In this document: one piece after another, positions 2,897-64,000 of the stretch
Layout: each line of letters begins with the position of its first letter
How positions within the stretch are numbered: the first letter of the stretch is position 1
Source: a virus
Lineage: Duplodnaviria; Caudoviricetes
IMG/VR virus record: IMGVR_UViG_3300021399_003927
Location: 65,492-129,491 of that record
DNA: 64,000 nt
Direction: 5' to 3' (one strand)
Translations under genes and position numbers: made by a program
Notes under the pieces: model-generated
What the model saw: only the letters and a program-made list of their open reading frames with translations
Databases searched by the model: none
Told to the model about the DNA's origin: nothing

Positions 2897-2916
2897 TTGT
2901 CCATCAATTTGTTAAG

Positions 2917-3274
2917 TGGAGCTAGAGTGAATCGAACACTCGTCCATACTACCATCCCATAAGAGATTACACAAGCTTTAAAATTGGAAAGTTGACATTG
3001 CTGTCCTCACCGCCACCTCATTTTGCGAAAACGAGGAAAACTAGGGGGATGACTAGAGTCATCAGTCCACCATTCGGTTTCAAAAAACCGACAAAAAGTT
3101 GCATGGATGTTCTGTTCCTAAGAGCCATGCCTCTCGGCTCACATTACGCTGCTACAGCGTACTCGTAAGCAGGAGAATCAACATTCTCGCCGTTTATATT
3201 TTTTTGCTATTTCTAGTGTATGCCCACTGCTTGTCTCTTACCAAATGTATAGCTGTCTATACCATTGTAGCCCC
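2917..3274 (-). ncRNA. ssrA: tmRNA, tag peptide GENVDSPAYEYAVAA (3144-3191)
   Basis: 5' GGGGCTA...GAC, 3' T arm + TAGCTCCA with G3-U70; resume codon after ATAAAC; tag ends AVAA*. Confidence 0.93.
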
Positions 3275-3301: not shown

Positions 3302-3378
3302 TCGAGACGGCAGGAGTTGAACCTGCGTGTGACCTACTACACTTTCTACTCCTTATCAGGGAGAGGTGATACGTCTCG
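3302..3378 (-). tRNA. D-armless tRNA-Ile(GAT)-like RNA with long variable hairpin
   Basis: CGAGACG/CGTCTCG+A; 8-nt linker in place of D arm; CTCC-CTGATAA-GGAG; GTG-TAGTAGGT-CAC in variable region; normal T arm. Confidence 0.7.
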
Positions 3379-7065: not shown

Positions 7066-7196
7066 GGGTACATAAAACCAACATTTCAACCCCTCCAAGT
7101 TTAAATAAATATTTGCGGAGGGGGTAGGAATCGAACCTACGTTACACAAATTGACAGTCTGCTTGAAGTGTAAATTTAAACTTGCTGTGTGTACCC
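7066..7196 (-). ncRNA. ACAGCAA-stem RNA 3 with permuted tRNA-Asp(GTC) opened in the D loop
   Basis: GGGTACAC-ACAGCAA ... TTCAA, GCAGA-CTGTCAA-TTTGT, T arm, CCCCTCC-G, linker, GGAGGGG, TTGAA ... TGTACCC. Confidence 0.8.
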
Positions 7197-7584: not shown

Positions 7585-7656
7585 TTCTCCCAGAGGATTC
7601 TGCCACCTCGACCCCATGTTTAAGAGACACGTGCTCTACTTCTGAGCTATGGGAGA
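7585..7656 (-). tRNA. tRNA-Lys(CTT), atypical T loop
   Basis: CGTGT-CTCTTAA-ACATG; T loop TGGCAGAAT. Confidence 0.8.
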
Positions 7657-13865: not shown

Positions 13866-14024
13866 AGGAACGACCAATTTTATGTCTTGGCTCGACATTC
13901 GCTCTTACTTAAGGAGCATAGGTAAGTGCCTCGCAATGATGATTTAACGCTTCTCTTACCCTTGTCTAGTCTGAATTAAAAAATGTTGTTCGTGTAAATT
14001 TTAATCAAACTGCTGTACGTTCCT
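13866..14024 (-). ncRNA. ACAGCA-stem RNA 4 (non-tRNA multi-hairpin cargo)
   Basis: AGGAACGT-ACAGCAG ... CGTTCCT; internal GGTAAG/CTTACC, GCTC/GAGC, ATGTC/GACAT. Confidence 0.7.
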
Positions 14025-16475: not shown

Positions 16476-16602
16476 GGAAACAATTGTTTTTAGACTGCCG
16501 TGTTTAGCCACTCCACCAACTTTCATCTAAGAAAGTGTGGGATTCGAACCCACGAAATCAATTACGATTAGCTGTTTTGAACAAATATTGCTGTTTGTTT
16601 CC
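16476..16602 (-). ncRNA. ACAGCAA-stem RNA 5 with permuted type-II tRNA module
   Basis: GGAAACAA-ACAGCAA ... ACAGC, V arm, T arm, ACTTTC-TTAGAT-GAAAGT (capped acceptor), D arm, GCAGT ... TTGTTTCC. Confidence 0.8.
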
Positions 16603-16630: not shown

Positions 16631-16704
16631 TAGGGGCGATGGATAATGCTCCCACTATCTCATGCTTATAAGGCATGTGCTTTTACTGTCTAAGCTACAC
16701 CCCA
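16631..16704 (-). tRNA. tRNA-Ile(TAT)
   Basis: CATGC-CTTATAA-GCATG; atypical T loop AGCATTA; T1:T72 mismatch. Confidence 0.8.
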
Positions 16705-17157: not shown

Positions 17158-17303
17158 GGAAACGTTTGTTGTTTATTTTAAGTGCTCTAGCCGACTGAGC
17201 TACCACGCTATGTTATTATAATTTAGCAGCGTGGGCAGGACTCGAACCTGCGACCCCTAGCTTGTAATGCTTTTTTAAACGATATACATTGCTGTACGTT
17301 TCC
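17158..17303 (-). ncRNA. ACAGCAA-stem RNA 6 with permuted tRNA (Val TAC-like)
   Basis: GGAAACGT-ACAGCAA ... TTACAAGCTAG, T arm, CCACGCT-G, AT-rich linker, AGCGTGG, D arm ... CGTTTCC. Confidence 0.82.
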
Positions 17304-17309
17304 ACGTTG

Positions 17310-17867
17310 AGCGAGTGAACGGAATCGAACCGTCATATTCAGCTTGCTTACCACACTATGTTACCATAGCCAAACAAATGCTTCCCTTTCAAGGCATATT
17401 TAACTCTTCTAAGCTCATTTGTCTGTTGTAGTCTGGAATACATCTTTACCATATTGAAATTCTTGCAAGATATATTTGAACATTCTTCCTCTTCTTTTTC
17501 CCAATAGGCTCTATATATTACGCAAAGAGTTGTACGCTATTATCCTCTTGGCAAGTTCAAATATAAATTTCAACTTAGGTATCTCCTATATACTCTCTAC
17601 ACATTTATGAGAATAAACTATTGGTTAAATAGACTTACTTACAAGGTTTTTCCTTTTCTTGTACCTATTATTCTCAATTTAGCACGGTATTATCCTTCCC
17701 CATTATTGTTTAGGAGGCACTGATAGTCTTATACAGTACGATTTATTATTATACTACTCGTAAGGACTTCCACCGTTTTAGGGAGATTCTACTATGGGAT
17801 TTCTCGCCATAGCACTTCATTTTCAGTCCTTTGGAGGGCTGACATTCTACCATTGAACTACACTCGC
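17310..17867 (-). tRNA. tRNA-Gly(TCC) interrupted by a group I intron (exons 17834-17867 and 17310-17346)
   Basis: Joined exons give TCAGC-CCTC|CAA-GCTGA, GCGAGTG/CACTCGC+U73. Confidence 0.85.
17347..17833 (-). mobile_element. Group I intron (487 nt) at tRNA position 35/36
   Basis: Core near-identical to the Arg intron; terminal G; exact 5' splice site inferred. Confidence 0.82.
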
Positions 17868-19534: not shown

Positions 19535-19648
19535 GGATACTTTTGTTTTAACCAATACCTCCGAAGAGGCTTTCTTCCTATTTTTGACGGAAAAATTTGG
19601 ATTCGAACCAAAAAGCTGTAACAAAAGTCACACTTGCTGTTAGTATCC
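19535..19648 (-). ncRNA. ACAGCAA-stem RNA 7 with minimal permuted T/acceptor/D module
   Basis: GGATACTA-ACAGCAA ... TTTGG-TTCGAAT-CCAAA, TTTTTCC ... GGAAGAA, GCCTC-TTCG-GAGGT ... AGTATCC. Confidence 0.78.
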
Positions 19649-19862: not shown

Positions 19863-19963
19863 ATAAAACGATGCAAGTGATAAACCTCGCAGTTTTTTTA
19901 TTTAACGTGGAGAACCTTGGATACTTCCTGCGTTACCAAACTCCATTCCTACCTTATGGTTTC

Positions 19964-20098
19964 GGAAACATTTTTTTGCTTTCTCTACCAACTGAGCTAC
20001 CTCCCCAAGTTATCTGATTTTGTGGGGAGGGTGAGACTCGAACTCACGACCCTTTGATTATCAGTCAAATGCTTGCGTAATACTTGCTGTATGTTTCC
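19964..20098 (-). ncRNA. ACAGCAA-stem RNA 8 with complete circularly permuted tRNA-Ile(GAT)
   Basis: GGAAACAT-ACAGCAA ... CA-TTTGA-CTGATAA-TCAAA-GGGTC-T arm-CCTCCCCA, 16-nt linker, GGGGAGG-TA-GCTCAGTTGGTAGAG ... ATGTTTCC. Confidence 0.88.
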
Positions 20099-20158
20099 TT
20101 ATGTTTTGCAAAGATATACAAAATATTTTTTATTTCCAAATTTTCAAAGAACTTTTTT

Positions 20159-20341
20159 TCAATCCACCTCTATTTTGTTTCCGCAACTTGGACAAGTGAT
20201 AAACTTACCAATATAGGTTTCTCCAGCATATGACTGAACACCATAGGAACACTCTTTTTCTTCAATGTCAGATGCACTATATTCCAAATAAGAACAGCAT
20301 TTTGAACATTTAACTATATTTCCTTCTAATTTTTTTACCAT
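20159..20341 (-). CDS. Small Zn-ribbon protein
   Basis: CSKC ... CPSC. Confidence 0.65.
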   Translation of the reverse strand: MVKKLEGNIVKCSKCCSYLEYSASDIEEKECSYGVQSYAGETYIGKFITCPSCGNKIEVD

Positions 20342-21306: not shown

Positions 21307-21419
21307 GGAATCCTTTAAACTAAGGTAGGTAGGGAGTCGAACCCTAATCTCTTGGTAAAATCCAAGGCTCTACCATTGAGCTACCCATCTGGAGTTTTTA
21401 CCTTATGCTGCAAGATTCC
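21307..21419 (-). ncRNA. RCAGCA-stem RNA 9 enclosing a non-permuted tRNA-like body
   Basis: GGAATCTT-GCAGCAT ... full cloverleaf with 6-nt loop ATTTTA ... GGATTCC. Confidence 0.72.
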
Positions 21420-31172: not shown

Positions 31173-31400
31173 TTATTCCTCTGATGCCTTGATGTTCATT
31201 TTAGGCTTCATGAAGAACAAGATATTCACAGTTGGCTCTATGTTTTTGACAATCTCTTCCATTGGCTTATAAGCATCTGGAGCCTCATCCAATGTCTGCT
31301 TATCAGCAGTTGTGGTATAGATGCCAGCTTCAGCCATCTGCTTCTGAAACTCTTCCACGTCAAGGTTCTGTTTTGCTGCTGAACGAGACATAATACGTCC
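31173..31400 (-). pseudogene. Displaced 3' fragment of rtcB
   Basis: GRIMSRSAAKQ ... TLDEAPDAYKP ... MKPKMNIKASEE parallels the RtcB C-terminus. Confidence 0.88.
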
Positions 31401-36661: not shown

Positions 36662-38014
36662 TTACTCAGCAGCTTTGATGTTCATGCGAGGTTTCATCAT
36701 ATATAGAACATTGACTGTAGGTTCTATCAGTTTGACTATTTCCTCATAAGGTTTATAAGCTTCTGGGGCTTCGTCTAACGTGGAGGCATCTGCTGTAGTT
36801 GTATATACCCCTGCTGCTGCCATTTCAGCCTTAAAGTCCTCTACGTTGAGCTGCTGATGGGCTTTCGTCCTTGAGAGTGACCTACCACAGCCGTGCGGAG
36901 CTGTATAGTTCCAATCCTCATTTGACTTACCCTCACAGATTGAAATACCATCCCTCATGTTAAATGGAATAATTACCCTTTCGCCAGCGTAAGCACGAAT
37001 AGCACCTTTACGAATCATCATATTAGGCTTACCCATAAGTGCCTTAAGGTCATAGTCGATGTAGTTATGCGTAGTGTGAATGGTATCAATTATACTTGCA
37101 CCTTTCGCCATCTTCCTATAGATGTCAACCACTTGCTCAATAATTGTCTCGTGGTTCAAACGAGCATACTCTTGTGCAAGCAATACATCAACAAGATAAC
37201 CCATAAGGTTCTCACCACTCAGATAACCTGGAATCTTCTTTGACAGATATTCCTCTTTTGCTGCTTTGATTTCTGACGCAAGGTTCTTCTTATCCGTGTT
37301 CTTTTCTTTTACGGAATCGGTAAGCATTTTCATTTCCTCTTTGGTAATCACCATGCTCTTGGCAATCTTATTCCAGTAGTTAAATACCTTTAGACCAAGA
37401 TTACGTGAGCCGCAGTGCACACAGATACAATACTTACCCAACTCATCATTTACATCATACTCAAGAAAATGATTACCACCCCCAACAGTACCGATAGACT
37501 TGAGGAACACACCGTAATCCATGTTTATCTTCTTACACCATGCCTCCAAATCCCTCTCTGTAGTCATTTCTACGCGATAAGGGGCAAGCTGTGGATAGAA
37601 TGAACACATACGGTTAAGAGCGGCGTTAAAACGCTTTATAACGAATTTGACATCTATCTTCTTCTTGTCATTGATTTCAAATCCAAAAGGAATGGCCTTT
37701 CTAATTTTGTGTTCAAACTCCTTCATTGCATCGTCACCAATAGGTTTGTCGAAAAACACAGCAGATATGGTACAACCTAAATCGCATCCCACCACTTCTG
37801 GCGAAACAAAATCATGCTCAATATCTATTGGGCAAGAAAAACCGATGACGCAACCCTTTCCTTGGTGTACATCTGGCATTATTCTTATTTTTTTATTTTT
37901 ATAAGCCATAGATTCTGCCATTTTGTATATGGTAGATAATGCTTCTTTTTCTATATTATCCGTAAATATTTTAATATCTTTACAATATTTCCCTTTCAAT
38001 TCTAATGCGTCCAT
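36662..38014 (-). CDS. rtcB: RNA ligase RtcB
   Basis: MPDVH, GCDLGC, GGGNHF, HCGSR, HNY, HGCGR, DEAPEAYK. Confidence 0.95.
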   Translation of the reverse strand: MDALELKGKYCKDIKIFTDNIEKEALSTIYKMAESMAYKNKKIRIMPDVHQGKGCVIGFSCPIDIEHDFVSPEVVGCDLGCTISAVFFDKPIGDDAMKEFEHKIRKAIPFGFEINDKKKIDVKFVIKRFNAALNRMCSFYPQLAPYRVEMTTERDLEAWCKKINMDYGVFLKSIGTVGGGNHFLEYDVNDELGKYCICVHCGSRNLGLKVFNYWNKIAKSMVITKEEMKMLTDSVKEKNTDKKNLASEIKAAKEEYLSKKIPGYLSGENLMGYLVDVLLAQEYARLNHETIIEQVVDIYRKMAKGASIIDTIHTTHNYIDYDLKALMGKPNMMIRKGAIRAYAGERVIIPFNMRDGISICEGKSNEDWNYTAPHGCGRSLSRTKAHQQLNVEDFKAEMAAAGVYTTTADASTLDEAPEAYKPYEEIVKLIEPTVNVLYMMKPRMNIKAAE

Positions 38015-58802: not shown

Positions 58803-61800
58803 TTAACAAGTAGGATTAGAAGGTGAGAATGTTACTTGACCTCCACTTGATGTTACTTGTTGACTTGCACTGACTGTTATCGTGCCACACTTGCTAACTG
58901 CAATGGTTTTTCCACTACATACACTTCCATTTACATATAATTGTATGGTTGCGCTAGATTTATTGTTAGTTAAAGACGTAATTACTACGTTTCCGTTGCT
59001 AACAGAAGCACCAAAACAACTTGGCTTAGAAGACTGTGCTGTCACAGTACCTCCTGCACAACCTACTAATTCATATGGAACGCTAGCAGTTGATGCGGTT
59101 AATACTACCGAACTAGCACCTAATACCAAGTTGCTACATGCGCAACTAGGTGCATTAGCATATATGTCAACTAAATCAGAAGTATAACAGCAATCTGCTT
59201 CATCTGTAGTTAGCGTCTTATACAACTTATATCCAAGTGTTCCAACCTTTACTGGAAAATCAACATTAGTAAAGTGACTAATATCACCAATCGTTACTTG
59301 AATTGTCGTAACATGGCTAGTTGTGTCCGTGCTAACGCTACAACCATATGCGCTTATCAAGTTTGCTACTACATTGGCATTTCCACAAGGATGAGATATG
59401 GTAAACACTGTGATTGTACTACTAGGCGCACCTGAAGTTGCACCTGTCGTTGTTGTAAACAATCCACAGCTACATCCTGCTGCTTGAGTGAACGTTACAG
59501 TTTTACATAAAGTACCATTCAAGTAGAAGCGGATATATCCAATTCTAACTGCATTGACACCATTCTCTGCGACTTGATAAGTAACCGTCTTAGTTGAAGC
59601 ATAATGGTTAATAGTAATCCAATTAACTGTAGAATAAGCACTGACGCTACCACAATTAGCAGTATACGTTATTGAATCATTTGTTGCTCCTGAACCAACA
59701 CTTTGACTAGTACCAACACTTAAAGCAAAGCTTGAAGTTGAACAGTTACATCCTTGTGCCGCTTGCGTTATACTAAATTCTTTACAAGCACTGCCTCCGT
59801 TTACGCTTAAGTAGAAATGAGCCGTTCTAGAACTAAACGTAGTATTGGTTTGTGCAGTAATACTAAGTTTCAACACACGAGTAGACATATCTATAGTAAC
59901 TGCGGATGTAAACCAAGATGCACTTCCACCAGAAACACGGATGTTTGAGTTGTTAGGACATGTAGAAGATACAATTACTATGTCTCTATATACACCTGAA
60001 CTAGATGGTAATGGGTTGGTAGTTGTGCCAGATGTTTGTCTTACACTTGCTGAAACCACATCACAATTACATGTTTTTGAGTATCTATAGGCGTTAAAAC
60101 TAGCGCAGCAACCTGTATCACCTTGAGTACAAGTTAAACTATCAGTTCCAGTACGTATTGTAACAGTTGTCGTTCCTGTATCGGCTGCATCAAAACCTGT
60201 GCTTGGTAGCAATCTTATATATGCTTTACCTTTGTACAACGTACCACTTGAATTTGTAGTAGTGCTAGTTAAAACTACAGATGAATTACTTCTATCAAGC
60301 AAGCCTGATGATGGATTAGGATTCGTTTCTGACAAGTAGAAATTAGGCGTGCAAGTAGTTGCAGTGTTTGGAACAGCTTTTTGCCACTCTACATAAGCAT
60401 CAGTGTTACCGTCTCCATCAAAAAACATCATAGTGCTAGCAGAAGATGGAACTGTCCAAGCAGTAAATGTTTGCTGGTCACAAGCGCAATCAGGACTTGG
60501 ACATGCGCTTCCTGCACCTTGTACTACTGGGAAGTCATAGTAACATGGATGTCCTTCAAAACCAACCATACCTCTTATGACGCCAGTTCTTGCTGGAGCA
60601 CCACATTGCTGTGCAGTTGCACCTGTAATTGTTACATAATAACTTCTAGAAGTGTCGCTTGTTCCTGTTATGTTGAAATCTGCTCCTTGAACCCAACTTG
60701 GACTTGATACAACGTATATACCAGCTTGTCCGATACAAGAGAAGAAATCAGAACTTGCTTTTCCTCCACTTATTTGTAAACGATTACTTGAACTACCTGT
60801 ATAACCAGTGCTTGGAACAATATTACTGCTATACTCTGTATATACCACGTTTTGACTACATTCACCTATACAATCACATATTGGTAAAGCGTCTTGCTTC
60901 CTTATCATGGTAAACGTACATGAAGTAGTATTACCATAACCATCGTTGTGAGTTCCTGTAAACGTGAAAGTAACACTTCTCTCAGAATTACCACATAACT
61001 GTGCAGTACAGTCTCCTGTTAAGTAATACTCAGTGTTCATGTAACTTTCAAGACCTAAAGTATTATCATCTACCCAATTAGCATTACTTGTAATGGAAAT
61101 GTTCGACATACAATTTCCAACTGTTACCATTGGCAATGAGAACGTTGTTGCTGTAGCTGGAATTGTTATTCCACTGTAAGTGCTTTCTGAATGTGCGGTT
61201 AATTGACTACTACAGTTATTACAGCTACAAGAAGTGCGTCCATCTTGCCAAACAGTGAATGTCTTTGCACATGTCAAAGGACTAGTTGCTGCAACACTAT
61301 AGTTAAACGTTACAGTTCCACTTCTAGGGTAAGATGTTTTAAGGCAATCTCTTTCTGCTACTGTTCCCCAAATATACACATTTTTAAGATTGACAGGTGG
61401 ACGAGAAGCAGTATATTGTGTTCCGTTTTCGTCACCATAATAAAGATTTGTAATCCAAGAAACATTAGTGGTAAGTCCTGTTAAATCTATCGTTACACAG
61501 TTTGAAGTAAGACTTATATCACCGTTAAATACCACTTGAGCTAAATTAACAGTACCTCCACTATAAGTAGCACCACTTGATTTTGAAGTTAATGCGAATA
61601 AACTCTCAACTCCGTCATCACAGTCCATGCCTGCACATGGGTTACAACTTGAAGGGTTACCTGCTTGTGTTACGCTTATGGTATCACTTGTACAAGACAA
61701 TCCGTTGCTTAAGTGAGCAATAAGTTTGAAACTGTCAGTTCTAGAAGGACTTTCACAAGCTGAGTTACTAGTAGTATTAGCTGTTACTGTACCATCTGAT

Positions 61801-64000
61801 TTAACTGTGATGTTGGTTAACCATGAACCTGTAGTTACACTAGTATCAACAGTAACTGAAGTTACACATGAACCAGAGATATATGTAGCAACTTTGACAC
61901 CACTGTGAGAAGAGTTGGTAAGTGTACCTACTCCTGCAACGTTAAAGTTAGCAGTTTCACAAGTGGCTGTAATACATGGGTTACATCCACTGCTACACAA
62001 TGCGCCTTGAGTAAATGTTACACTATCACTTTGTATAGTACCACCAGTTTCGTCTGTTATTGTATAATAATACATTCCTGTCAGTTGTCTGTTCAGACAG
62101 TTATCATGCTCTAATGGGGCATATTTAGTACCATTAAGCTGCATGTAATTATCACCAGTTGAGAAATTCCAAGTAATATCGTAATCTTCATAAAGAATCC
62201 AATCACCTTGTCCACTAGGATTTGTACATTTTCTCATCACTACAACTGGAAATTCACAAGGTTCTGTAGCACATGCTCCACAAGCTGGTAAAACAATGTC
62301 CTCCAAACCACTTACACTCCATGTCCATGAACTACATGGGCAACTTATGCAAGGTCCTGCACTTTGAGTTACTGTAAAGTCCTTATATGTTGCAGTTATT
62401 CCATTAACTGATGCAACAATCCTATAACTATAGCTCCTAGAACTTGAAGAACAGTTGTAATTGGTGCTGCTGTCGTATCTAATACTGTGGCTCGTATTAT
62501 CTATATTACCAAATGCTTGAGTATTTCTATCCACTATATTTACGGTAGCTTCACCGAAATAGTCTTCCCATTGGCTACTCCAAGTAGCACATCTTGTCTG
62601 TATGCCATAGTTAGGATAAAGAACACCACCACATGCACTGATGTTATATGTGGAATCACCAGTTACTCTATACTCTACAGTTGGACATTCACAATTTCCA
62701 GTGCAATACCCAGCAGTTTGGTCAAATCTGTAGTTACAATAATCAACATTACTATCCCATGAAGCATTTGGGTCGTTTGCTATTACTGCCGTTACTTTCC
62801 ATGTAGAATACTTAGAGCTTGGAGTGCAATTATTTGCGACTGCAAATGTATTGCCTTGAGCTATATAAAGCATATCTGCGTCACCACCAGTATTAGTCCA
62901 TACGTAAGAAACAGCACCTTCATAATCGTGCGCATCTGCCCAACTTTCTCCCTTACTAGAGCAAATCCACTTAACAGTAGGAGTAACTATGTTCTTAATT
63001 CCCTCATCACACTCAGAGCTACTATAAGCCGTTGTGCTTGGGCAATAAATTTTGTATTCAACTTCAGAACAAGAACATGATGAACATTGCCCAGCTTTCT
63101 GTTTAAACTTAACAGTAACCGCGCTTTCAGTCTGATTTGTTCCATCTAGCTTATGAATAACAACTGTTAAATTATAAACTGATTCTGCTGTACTAGTAGT
63201 ACAGTTTGTTGGAACTGACCAAGTACCATTTGTTGAATTAACTGTTGCGTTACCACTAACTTTAGTCCAAGTAGCAGTAAAATCGGTATATGACTGCCAC
63301 TCTTCTGCTCCAAAAGTAGTACATCTATATTGAACTGTCAAATCTGGTAAATTATCAGAATTGCCACATTCAGAAATATTCTCTACATCATATGCTCCTT
63401 GACTGTAAACAAACCTGTATTCATAATTCTGGCATCCACAACATGTCTGACATGGTCCAGCTACTTGACTGAATGTCACATCGCAATAGTTATTTCCTAC
63501 CCATGAGACGTTGCTGTCGCTTGGAGTAAATGTAAATCTGATAACTTCGCTTCTAGCTGAATCACAGTTACAGCTTGCAGCCCAATAATAATTTCCGTTA
63601 CTCTTACTAATGGTTATGAAATTAGCACCACTCTGATGAGACCAAGTAAGACCAGTTGAGAAATTAACTATGTACCATCCTTCAGTCGATGGATTTTGAC
63701 ATTGCTTGTATATCTCCATTCCACCTAACACACCGTTAGTAGGACAAGCTTGGATACCACTAACACCATGGAAGCAATACTCCATTTCATATAGCCAAGA
63801 TGTGCATGGGCAAGTAGAACAAGGTCCAGCTGCTTGAGTGAACGTTACGTCACAAGTTAATGCAGTAACAGTTGTACCACCACTAGTAACTGAAACATTC
63901 AAACCAAGTGTAGCACTTTTAGCTGTTGAATCACAGTTCTTATCAATTGTCCATGTGTGGTTGCTGTTGTTTACTGTTACGGCTGCTGCACCACTCTTCT
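58803..64000 (-). CDS. Large Cys-rich BACON-like repeat fibre protein (5' end outside window)
   Basis: More than 1730 aa open to the window edge; ~110-125-aa repeats W ... N.C...R ... C..TFTQ.AG.C..C.C. Confidence 0.8.
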   Translation of the reverse strand, partial: KSGAAAVTVNNSNHTWTIDKNCDSTAKSATLGLNVSVTSGGTTVTALTCDVTFTQAAGPCSTCPCTSWLYEMEYCFHGVSGIQACPTNGVLGGMEIYKQCQNPSTEGWYIVNFSTGLTWSHQSGANFITISKSNGNYYWAASCNCDSARSEVIRFTFTPSDSNVSWVGNNYCDVTFSQVAGPCQTCCGCQNYEYRFVYSQGAYDVENISECGNSDNLPDLTVQYRCTTFGAEEWQSYTDFTATWTKVSGNATVNSTNGTWSVPTNCTTSTAESVYNLTVVIHKLDGTNQTESAVTVKFKQKAGQCSSCSCSEVEYKIYCPSTTAYSSSECDEGIKNIVTPTVKWICSSKGESWADAHDYEGAVSYVWTNTGGDADMLYIAQGNTFAVANNCTPSSKYSTWKVTAVIANDPNASWDSNVDYCNYRFDQTAGYCTGNCECPTVEYRVTGDSTYNISACGGVLYPNYGIQTRCATWSSQWEDYFGEATVNIVDRNTQAFGNIDNTSHSIRYDSSTNYNCSSSSRSYSYRIVASVNGITATYKDFTVTQSAGPCISCPCSSWTWSVSGLEDIVLPACGACATEPCEFPVVVMRKCTNPSGQGDWILYEDYDITWNFSTGDNYMQLNGTKYAPLEHDNCLNRQLTGMYYYTITDETGGTIQSDSVTFTQGALCSSGCNPCITATCETANFNVAGVGTLTNSSHSGVKVATYISGSCVTSVTVDTSVTTGSWLTNITVKSDGTVTANTTSNSACESPSRTDSFKLIAHLSNGLSCTSDTISVTQAGNPSSCNPCAGMDCDDGVESLFALTSKSSGATYSGGTVNLAQVVFNGDISLTSNCVTIDLTGLTTNVSWITNLYYGDENGTQYTASRPPVNLKNVYIWGTVAERDCLKTSYPRSGTVTFNYSVAATSPLTCAKTFTVWQDGRTSCSCNNCSSQLTAHSESTYSGITIPATATTFSLPMVTVGNCMSNISITSNANWVDDNTLGLESYMNTEYYLTGDCTAQLCGNSERSVTFTFTGTHNDGYGNTTSCTFTMIRKQDALPICDCIGECSQNVVYTEYSSNIVPSTGYTGSSSNRLQISGGKASSDFFSCIGQAGIYVVSSPSWVQGADFNITGTSDTSRSYYVTITGATAQQCGAPARTGVIRGMVGFEGHPCYYDFPVVQGAGSACPSPDCACDQQTFTAWTVPSSASTMMFFDGDGNTDAYVEWQKAVPNTATTCTPNFYLSETNPNPSSGLLDRSNSSVVLTSTTTNSSGTLYKGKAYIRLLPSTGFDAADTGTTTVTIRTGTDSLTCTQGDTGCCASFNAYRYSKTCNCDVVSASVRQTSGTTTNPLPSSSGVYRDIVIVSSTCPNNSNIRVSGGSASWFTSAVTIDMSTRVLKLSITAQTNTTFSSRTAHFYLSVNGGSACKEFSITQAAQGCNCSTSSFALSVGTSQSVGSGATNDSITYTANCGSVSAYSTVNWITINHYASTKTVTYQVAENGVNAVRIGYIRFYLNGTLCKTVTFTQAAGCSCGLFTTTTGATSGAPSSTITVFTISHPCGNANVVANLISAYGCSVSTDTTSHVTTIQVTIGDISHFTNVDFPVKVGTLGYKLYKTLTTDEADCCYTSDLVDIYANAPSCACSNLVLGASSVVLTASTASVPYELVGCAGGTVTAQSSKPSCFGASVSNGNVVITSLTNNKSSATIQLYVNGSVCSGKTIAVSKCGTITVSASQQVTSSGGQVTFSPSNPTC

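Follow-up and report, generated by a model that had tools for sequence, protein, structure and literature searches.

A conserved, circularly permuted tRNA body in a large phage and its family of tRNA-shaped small RNAs

The tRNA island of a giant rumen phage (Duplodnaviria; Caudoviricetes) has been found to contain a unit in which a complete tRNA body is written in circularly permuted order, the 3' portion of the tRNA standing upstream of its 5' portion, and this arrangement is real, conserved and under structural selection. The unit lies on the minus strand at positions 19964-20098 of the window analysed here, a stretch of 64,000 nucleotides that forms the second half (positions 65,492 to 129,491) of the 129,491-bp virus record IMGVR_UViG_3300021399_003927 (G000, ~44% complete by CheckV); coordinates refer to the window unless a genome position is named. 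A preliminary description, made from the letters of the DNA alone, had read the locus as a permuted gene for a functional tRNA-Ile. We favour, with a probability of about 0.6, the reading that the unit is a new, Ro60-independent tRNA mimic, similar in kind to the YrlA-type bacterial Y RNAs (permuted tRNA mimics without an anticodon loop, tied to Ro60), possibly opened by RNase P, and that it is no dedicated isoleucine decoder. Together with its paralogs, the unit belongs to a new family of small RNAs shaped like tRNAs, which is widespread among large rumen phages and located in their tRNA islands; that such a family exists is well supported.

The G000 record carries 32 tRNA genes and a tmRNA, all of them on the minus strand, and the unit is read on this strand as well. 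Its outer ends form a terminal helix, here called the handle, which encloses two separated pieces of the tRNA. The parts are, from 5' to 3':

20109-20116, minus strand: promoter-like box TAnnTTTG, 18 nt upstream of the handle
20091-20098, minus strand: 5' strand of the handle, GGAAACAT (8 nt), perfectly paired with 19971-19964
20084-20090, minus strand: ACAGCAA motif, the family signature directly 3' of the handle 5' strand, invariant in 17/17 orthologs
20072-20083, minus strand: leader spacer of 12 nt, with 12 leader variants among the 17 distinct ortholog sequences
20023-20071, minus strand: upstream piece, tRNA positions 25-73, 49 nt (C25, A26, anticodon arm, variable loop, T arm, 3' acceptor strand, A73)
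20069-20053, minus strand: anticodon arm within the upstream piece, with the anticodon GAT at 20062-20060
20007-20022, minus strand: linker of 16 nt capping the acceptor stem, with C-A-A-A at its 5' start, as in the phage's tRNA trailers, and T-T preceding G1
19983-20006, minus strand: downstream piece, tRNA positions 1-24, 24 nt (5' acceptor strand, U8 A9, 5' strand of the D stem, D loop with GG, GAG)
19972-19982, minus strand: trailer spacer, A-rich, 11 nt
19964-19971, minus strand: 3' strand of the handle, ATGTTTCC (8 nt), complementary to the 5' strand

When the two pieces are joined by their coordinates, ARAGORN calls a tRNA-Ile(gat) of 73 bases in which every stem is fully paired (acceptor 7 bp, D 4 bp, anticodon 5 bp, T 5 bp). 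The joined cloverleaf of the preliminary description has thereby been reproduced, and the limits that it gave to the locus, 19964 and 20098, coincide exactly with the outer limits of the two handle strands. The Rfam tRNA model matches the unit partially (20031-20088, 28.2 bits, model positions 9-63). As a control for chance, the order anticodon arm, variable loop, T arm, 3' acceptor strand and, after 5-40 nt, a complementary 5' acceptor strand has been searched as a pattern, which occurs at 3 places in the 129-kb genome as compared with 0 in 100 block shuffles; the permuted cloverleaf is therefore no chance match. These three places are the permuted Ile unit, a further unit at 7162-7090 and a tandem pair of tRNA-Lys genes.

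The permuted arrangement recurs in 25 loci of related large phages, which amount to 17 distinct sequences with one architecture throughout. Besides the window, the loci comprise 4 further viral records found by the leader pattern of the unit and 20 metagenome contigs found by a pattern of its junction (two pairs of loci, L036/L048 and L038/L041, come from records of identical length, and each pair may represent a single record in duplicate). Across the 17 distinct sequences, the anticodon stem is paired in 85 of 85 cells with double changes at 3 positions, the T stem likewise in 85/85 with double changes at 2 positions, and the acceptor stem in 119/119 with double changes at 3 positions, the latter all contributed by the ortholog L037, in which 4 of the 7 stem positions are different. 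For the handle, 132 of 136 cells have been found paired by parsing with regular expressions; the MAFFT alignment puts the 3' handle strand out of register, and the covariation score given below is computed without the handle. RNAalifold, applied to 16 sequences, has independently predicted the anticodon arm, the T arm and the closed acceptor, with 5 of 23 pairs changed on both sides and none broken. The cloverleaf as specified by us, including the D stem formed between the two pieces, is paired in 97.9% of cells against 36-60% when the partners are slid, and its covariation score of 0.210, which compares with 0.004-0.033 for the slid versions, is reached by none of 500 shuffles. The T loop, the variable loop, U8-A9, A26 and A73 are invariant in all 17 distinct sequences; the linker occurs in 10 variants of 8-19 nt. 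Since 25 loci from separately assembled records share the same order, and their anticodon, T and acceptor stems have changed in a compensatory way, the arrangement is the product of neither misassembly, about which the preliminary description had been concerned, nor decay.

The point at which the tRNA is split has proved to be variable among relatives. A split near position 24/25, as had been proposed, is seen in 11 distinct sequences including the window, where the downstream D hairpin ends in GAG and C25 is supplied by the upstream piece, although the junction in the window itself is ambiguous by 2 nt. In the 6 remaining distinct sequences the junction lies in the D loop instead, and the D-stem 3' strand (TAGC, which pairs with GCTA) belongs in its entirety to the upstream piece. 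The trinucleotide G-C-A before the anticodon stem is invariant in all orthologs. That the junction has shifted in evolution while a D stem can still assemble argues that selection acts on the tRNA fold itself.

Within this conserved body, the anticodon loop is the least conserved part. The loop reads CTGATAA in 9 of the 17 distinct sequences, CTGAAA, which has 6 nt, in 4, CTAATAA in 2, and CTGTAAA and CTAGTAA in 1 each, so that GAT is present in 9/17 and the rest have AAT, GTA, AGT or the 6-nt loop. The latter stands on four different sequence backgrounds with all stems intact and must therefore have persisted. For comparison, the conventional tRNAs of the same 25 sources have been grouped into 11 clusters with 44 distinct sequences and within-cluster identities down to 0.81, and a single anticodon has been found in 10 of these 11 clusters, the exception being a CTG to CTA switch. 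The cluster anticodon is thus kept in 43/44 conventional sequences, as opposed to GAT in 9/17 sequences of the permuted unit (Fisher p = 6e-5). An earlier comparison of reciprocal-best tRNA pairs between G000 and G001, a complete relative of 295 kb, had yielded only 5 pairs with at least 80% identity, all with the same anticodon, a small sample that is superseded by the cluster baseline. The second permuted unit of the family switches its anticodon too, with GTC in G000 and GTT in two relatives. The preliminary statement that no conventional Ile(GAT) gene occurs holds within the window but not for the genome, in which ARAGORN has detected a poorly paired tRNA-Ile(gat) at genome positions 63756-63832, just outside the window, nor for G001, which carries two conventional Ile(gat) genes in addition to Asp and Asn. 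The permuted unit consequently fills no gap in the tRNA set. Taken together, the anticodon drift between relatives, the 6-nt loops and the conventional Ile genes speak mostly against the functional tRNA-Ile that had been proposed, and the drift makes a tRNA look-alike more likely than a working isoleucine tRNA.

As a separate observation on anticodons in this group, a tRNA with the anticodon CTA (amber suppressor type) is encoded just outside the window at genome position C1:63924-64009, and the CTG to CTA switch mentioned above lies within one tRNA-Gln cluster of the relatives; both may hint at TAG recoding in the phage group.

The unit is one of ~12 such units in G000, all of which lie on the tRNA strand within the tRNA island. 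Their common features are a terminal helix of 6-9 bp, the motif (A/G)CAGCA directly after its 5' strand and, often, a T run after its 3' strand. The terminal helices differ between paralogs yet always pair (GGAAACGT/ACGTTTCC, GGAAACAA/TTGTTTCC, GGGTACA/TGTACCC, GGATACT/AGTATCC, GGAATC/GATTCC), and the leader pattern has given 55 matches, nearly all on one strand, against 3 for reversed-pattern controls in six related phage records. The payloads enclosed by the handles vary:

7066-7196, minus strand: second permuted tRNA with an anticodon arm (GTC, Asp); handle GGGTACA/TGTACCC, ACAGCAA, 19-nt linker after the discriminator G
17158-17303, minus strand: T arm, closed 7-bp acceptor and full D arm without an anticodon loop (YrlA-like topology); Rfam YrlA 41 bits against a cut-off of 69
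16476-16602, minus strand: T arm and 6-bp acceptor with a short closing loop, then D arm
19535-19648, minus strand: T arm and closed acceptor, with simple hairpins replacing the D and anticodon arms
21307-21419, minus strand: handle GGAATC/GATTCC around a normal-order tRNA-like gene with a 6-nt anticodon loop
2174-2249, minus strand: short non-tRNA payload, handle and motif kept
13866-14024, minus strand: non-tRNA payload directly before tRNA-Arg, with an ortholog in G001

Most members of the family are tRNA-like, and several cannot decode; the bodies at 17158-17303, 16476-16602 and 19535-19648 are permuted and tRNA-like but have no anticodon loop. Orthologs of the 7066-7196 unit in two relatives carry GTT (Asn) and form a perfect 4-bp D stem between both pieces. 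In G001, the acceptor stem of the 17158-17303 unit has been rewritten with its pairing intact, the 16476-16602 unit has changed its acceptor and D stems in a compensatory manner, with a tetraloop closing the acceptor, and in the 19535-19648 unit the hairpin sequence has been replaced with the pairing kept. The handles have also been considered as terminal inverted repeats of a mobile element, an explanation that has been rejected, as paralogs show covariation between the two strands and exchanges of entire handles in which pairing is maintained. Regarding the 21307-21419 unit, the tRNA-like gene inside it (21322-21390) is reported by ARAGORN as 'tRNA-???' and scores 45.9 bits with the Rfam tRNA model, and its 6-nt loop is conserved in 9 distinct sequences of relatives. 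A further arrangement has been seen in the relative G002 (L016:4236-4354), where a tRNA-Lys(UUU)-like gene of normal order, not called by ARAGORN although its 7-bp acceptor stem is perfectly paired, contains, between its D and anticodon arms, an insert of ~45 nt that consists of the handle as a capped hairpin followed by ACAGCAA. This gene is related to the permuted units by circular permutation.

In the reading that we favour, the unit would be a small-RNA gene of ~135 nt, transcribed from a promoter of its own or, in some relatives, cut out of a polycistronic tRNA transcript. A promoter just upstream (20109) had already been noted in the preliminary description, and a TAnnTTTG box, which we take to be the Bacteroidota -7 element, is indeed present 18 nt upstream of the handle; it recurs among the orthologs, where 11 of the 16 distinct upstream contexts have it at a distance of 18-42 nt and three contexts directly follow a tRNA. 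Transcription would presumably start from this box. In the predicted fold, the ends of the RNA pair in the 8-bp handle, and inside it a complete, circularly permuted, L-shaped tRNA would be formed, the D stem being completed between the two pieces and the acceptor capped by a linker that resembles the inter-tRNA spacers of the phage. The RNA would act via this tRNA shape, as a mimic and probably without decoding, rather than as a dedicated tRNA-Ile. By analogy with the YrlA RNA of M. smegmatis, which has an acceptor stem of 7 bp, the acceptor may be opened by RNase P, trimmed at the 3' side and provided with CCA. This processing is proposed on account of the 7-bp acceptor, the T before G1, the A73-C, the unconstrained linker of 8-19 nt and a PolyA_pol-family protein encoded in 5/5 phage records searched. 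The PolyA_pol family includes CCA-adding enzymes, and a C follows the discriminator in 31 of the 32 ARAGORN tRNAs of the genome (CAA in 17), just as A73-C stands at the linker of the unit. The product would be a two-piece molecule similar to a nicked tRNA, whose pieces stay joined through handle, D stem and acceptor stem, and would need neither a splicing endonuclease nor ligation. It might be guessed that it serves as a decoy or adaptor for a tRNA-recognising protein of host or phage.

Several observations weigh against this mimic. The canonical 7-nt loop with GAT is kept in 9 of the 17 distinct sequences, and the loop changes are confined to positions 34-36, with 32, 33, 37 and 38 fixed, which could mean that the units are evolving decoders. 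A73 is invariant, and L037 has A-CCA directly after its acceptor strand, which would have the look of a chargeable end. The junction pattern fixed the acceptor stem and the linker ends in 20 of the 25 loci, so that invariance there is given by construction; among the 5 loci not found by it (by the leader pattern or as the window itself), the acceptor is the same in 4 and different in 1. The thermodynamic fold of the unit is unremarkable (z = -1.61, 11 of 200 shuffles folding equally well), and its minimum-free-energy structure is without the anticodon hairpin. With regard to YrlA, the motif GNCGAAN0-1G has been found in 0 of the 17 sequences, and no Ro60/TROVE gene has been matched at E <= 1 in G000, G001 (100% complete) or G002 (93% complete). 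Finally, the unit is covered, in the order of the DNA and across the linker, by contigs of three RNA libraries (X2 record 7, 19928-20087, no differences; X7 record 22; X9 record 29), with no joint in the unit among the 15 listed of 93 joints. All four RNA runs used consist of assembled contigs, in which strand, ends and processed forms are not visible and DNA carry-over is possible, and stretches beside the unit that lack RNA cover have been given no weight.

The alternative that survives best is a genuine permuted tRNA gene, which we nevertheless consider doubtful. RNase P and 3' processing would open the acceptor, CCA would be added, and the product would serve in translation. It would do so in two pieces, with the handle retained as an additional arm, or in a sealed version, for which some nuclease would have to remove the handle before RtcB closes the D arm. 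The perfect cloverleaf with all usual tertiary-contact nucleotides argues for such a gene, as do the covarying anticodon stem with its four fixed loop positions, the invariant A73, the linker ends of tRNA trailer and leader type and the A-CCA of L037. The PolyA_pol-family enzyme is counted on this side as well, together with the ligase gene of the phage:

36662-38014, minus strand: RtcB RNA ligase gene (PF01139, 202.9 bits), given as context only

RtcB is encoded in all 5 of the unit-bearing records that could be searched (G000 and 4 others) and is absent from G002, where, in the part of the record that was read, only other handle units and no permuted unit are seen; this co-occurrence is confounded by the kinship of the records. 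The ligation by RtcB suggested in the preliminary description accordingly finds the enzyme in the phage and 4 relatives but lacks the other elements of a splicing route. A conserved leader-trailer helix beside the junction, as a possible bulge-helix-bulge motif (BHB), is present in none of the 17 sequences, whose only conserved leader-trailer pairing is the distal 8-bp handle, and the splicing endonuclease family PF01974 has been detected in 0 of 3 phage records (G000 and two relatives, 100% and 93% complete). No RNA endonuclease candidate has been recognised by Pfam among 8 neighbour proteins of RtcB, which include GIY-YIG, a helicase-methyltransferase, an NAD synthase and 4 without a family. 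By established RtcB chemistry, moreover, the ends of a primary transcript (5'-PPP, 3'-OH) are no substrates of this ligase. The anticodon, furthermore, changes far oftener than in the conventional tRNAs of the same contigs, GTA and AGT variants sit on the same Ile-type body, the 6-nt loop is present in 4/17, sister units with the handle cannot decode, and conventional Ile genes are at hand. Independently of this question, a second short RtcB-like frame has been noticed at 31188-31400 (minus strand, 76 aa), which covers only the C-terminal 74 profile positions with 45.6 bits and lies 5 kb from the full RtcB.

The permuted tRNAs of Cyanidioschyzon merolae, other algae and Thermofilum pendens share with the phage unit the order of a 3' half upstream of a 5' half on one strand, a short acceptor linker and a pairing of leader and trailer. 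They depend on a BHB at the junction, a splicing endonuclease and a ligase, of which the phage has shown neither the BHB nor the endonuclease, and they are needed isoacceptors with fixed anticodons, whereas in the phages conventional isoacceptors are present, the anticodon drifts and the carrier is a bacterial virus. Permuted tRNA genes are explained by a model of tandem duplication, and by analogy the same origin is plausible for the phage unit. The type I permuted tRNAs of C. merolae have their junction in the D loop (20/21) according to PMC3978253, which is comparable to the D-loop junction of the phage orthologs. The same review describes two-piece tmRNAs from permuted ssrA genes, whose two base-paired pieces function without ligation, a further point in favour of a two-piece tRNA. 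Such a tmRNA resembles the phage unit as a permuted gene for a tRNA-like RNA in bacteria, and differs from it in having an mRNA module and a tRNA-like part without an anticodon arm. The tmRNA of the phage itself is of the conventional one-piece kind (2914-3274, tag GENVDSPAYEYAVAA), with an ortholog in G001. The wider claim that large bacterial viruses carry true permuted tRNAs which mature without a splicing endonuclease (by RNase P, 3' trimming and CCA addition), in two pieces or sealed by RtcB, and with an anticodon that is free to switch, appears to us unlikely.

It is more improbable still that the unit is a YrlA-type Y RNA proper, in which the terminal helix would bind a host Ro60/Rsr protein and the tRNA-like module would be an effector or stability domain. 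The resemblance is clear in outline, as the ends of both RNAs are paired in a terminal helix, the body of both is a permuted tRNA mimic in the order T arm, closed acceptor stem, D arm, and both occur in phages. YrlA RNAs are known in 22 phages (PMC4201824) and have been described as resembling circularly permuted tRNAs (bioRxiv 10.1101/312249). Bacteria and mycobacteriophages are known from these two papers to possess permuted RNAs of tRNA-like form whose acceptor stem is closed, which the preliminary description had not taken into account; bioRxiv 10.1101/312249 also states that no tRNA-splicing endonuclease has been reported in bacteria. The Rfam YrlA model (RF02553) matches the unit over its full length with 31.3 bits and three paralogs with 41, 23 and 16.9 bits, all below the gathering score of 69. 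A TROVE protein is encoded by Bacteroides thetaiotaomicron in the control set, and a Bacteroidota host, the phylum being inferred, could supply Ro60. Membership in YrlA nevertheless fails on several counts. The scores are far below the threshold, and since similar sub-threshold matches have been obtained in 13 of 14 control genomes, they mostly reflect tRNA likeness. The motif GNCGAAN0-1G near the 5' end, which PMC4201824 gives as the presumed Ro60 contact, is replaced by handle and ACAGCA as the signature of the phage unit, and published YrlAs lie within ~4 kb of a Ro60 gene, whereas none is found near the unit or anywhere in the complete relative. The phage unit has, in addition, a complete anticodon arm with a 7-nt loop; its terminal helix exits at the D arm, while the YrlA helix replaces the anticodon loop, and its family numbers ~12 paralogs per genome inside the tRNA island.

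That the unit is a non-functional relic of two tandem tRNA-Ile genes that have lost their outer halves, or an assembly chimera, is highly improbable: tandem near-identical tRNAs do occur in the genome, the same pattern arises over the spacer of the Lys-Lys pair, and D-arm-like remnants in the leader of some orthologs fit an origin by duplication, but the order is the same in 25 loci of separately assembled records, three stems are unbroken in 17 distinct sequences with compensatory changes, promoter box and handle are retained, and the nearest conventional tRNA is only 77% identical, hence no recent duplicate.

Known families and published descriptions have given no precedent for the unit. Over 19900-20160, no other Rfam family or known ribozyme has been matched at E <= 10, no model of Rfam 15 reaches its threshold at the permuted unit, and at gathering score the whole window contains only the tRNA and tmRNA families. 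A supposed likeness of the leader to hairpin or hammerhead ribozyme cores has been dropped, as no ribozyme family appears at E <= 10. A megablast search with 1.2 kb around the unit against 50,697 phage records has returned no match, and a first exact junction pattern has found nothing in a viral contig set that may leave out the window's own record. Our literature searches have turned up no phage or bacterium for which a permuted gene of a complete tRNA is described, in agreement with the preliminary remark that no phage example was known, and no account of the handle-ACAGCA family, with the proviso that the phage YrlA lists in the supplement of PMC4201824 may hold related RNAs.

The tRNA island contains further features in the neighbourhood of the unit. 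The spacer between the unit and a tRNA-Pro gene (19863-19963, minus strand) shows 93% mean column identity in five relatives, which is more than the unit itself, and folds into two hairpins (z = -2.21, 5 of 200 shuffles folding equally well); a second small RNA could be encoded here, or an element that serves in processing. A tRNA-Gly(TCC) gene is split in its anticodon loop by an insert of ~480 nt (17351-17828, minus strand; exons ~17870-17829 and 17350-17310), for which no Rfam family has been found at E <= 10, and the gene is uninterrupted in G001. In the RNA runs X7 and X9, the depth over 17285-17815 is ~8,600-50,000 as compared with 3-60 around it, and many RNA contigs carry other letters in place of 17469-17566. 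Back-going RNA joints from 17814/17816 to 17349/17353 suggest a circular or tandem form of this insert, and a second tRNA with a related insert is located at genome position ~60650-60850. Four further tRNAs that ARAGORN has missed reach the Rfam gathering score (898-1021, 3302-3378, 7585-7656, 16631-16704), the first of which is 124 nt long and may be interrupted.

To our knowledge, the only organisms for which complete tRNAs encoded in permuted order have been reported are a few algae and a single archaeon, and the maturation of these tRNAs requires the BHB splicing machinery. The phage unit sits between these permuted tRNA genes and YrlA, as it has a complete, covarying permuted body, no Ro60 and no splicing endonuclease that could be found. 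Its family is missed by current tRNA finders and by Rfam, and can be recognised by the terminal helix and ACAGCA. The unit therefore offers a test case for whether RNase P and CCA addition can make two-piece tRNAs, and for what tRNA mimics do during infection. If the units were true permuted tRNAs, their switchable triplet (Ile, Tyr, Thr, Asp to Asn, 6-nt loops) would give the phage a set of decoders that is able to evolve, or tRNAs that withstand the nucleases of the host, and if they decode, theirs would be the first maturation pathway for permuted tRNAs in the bacterial world.

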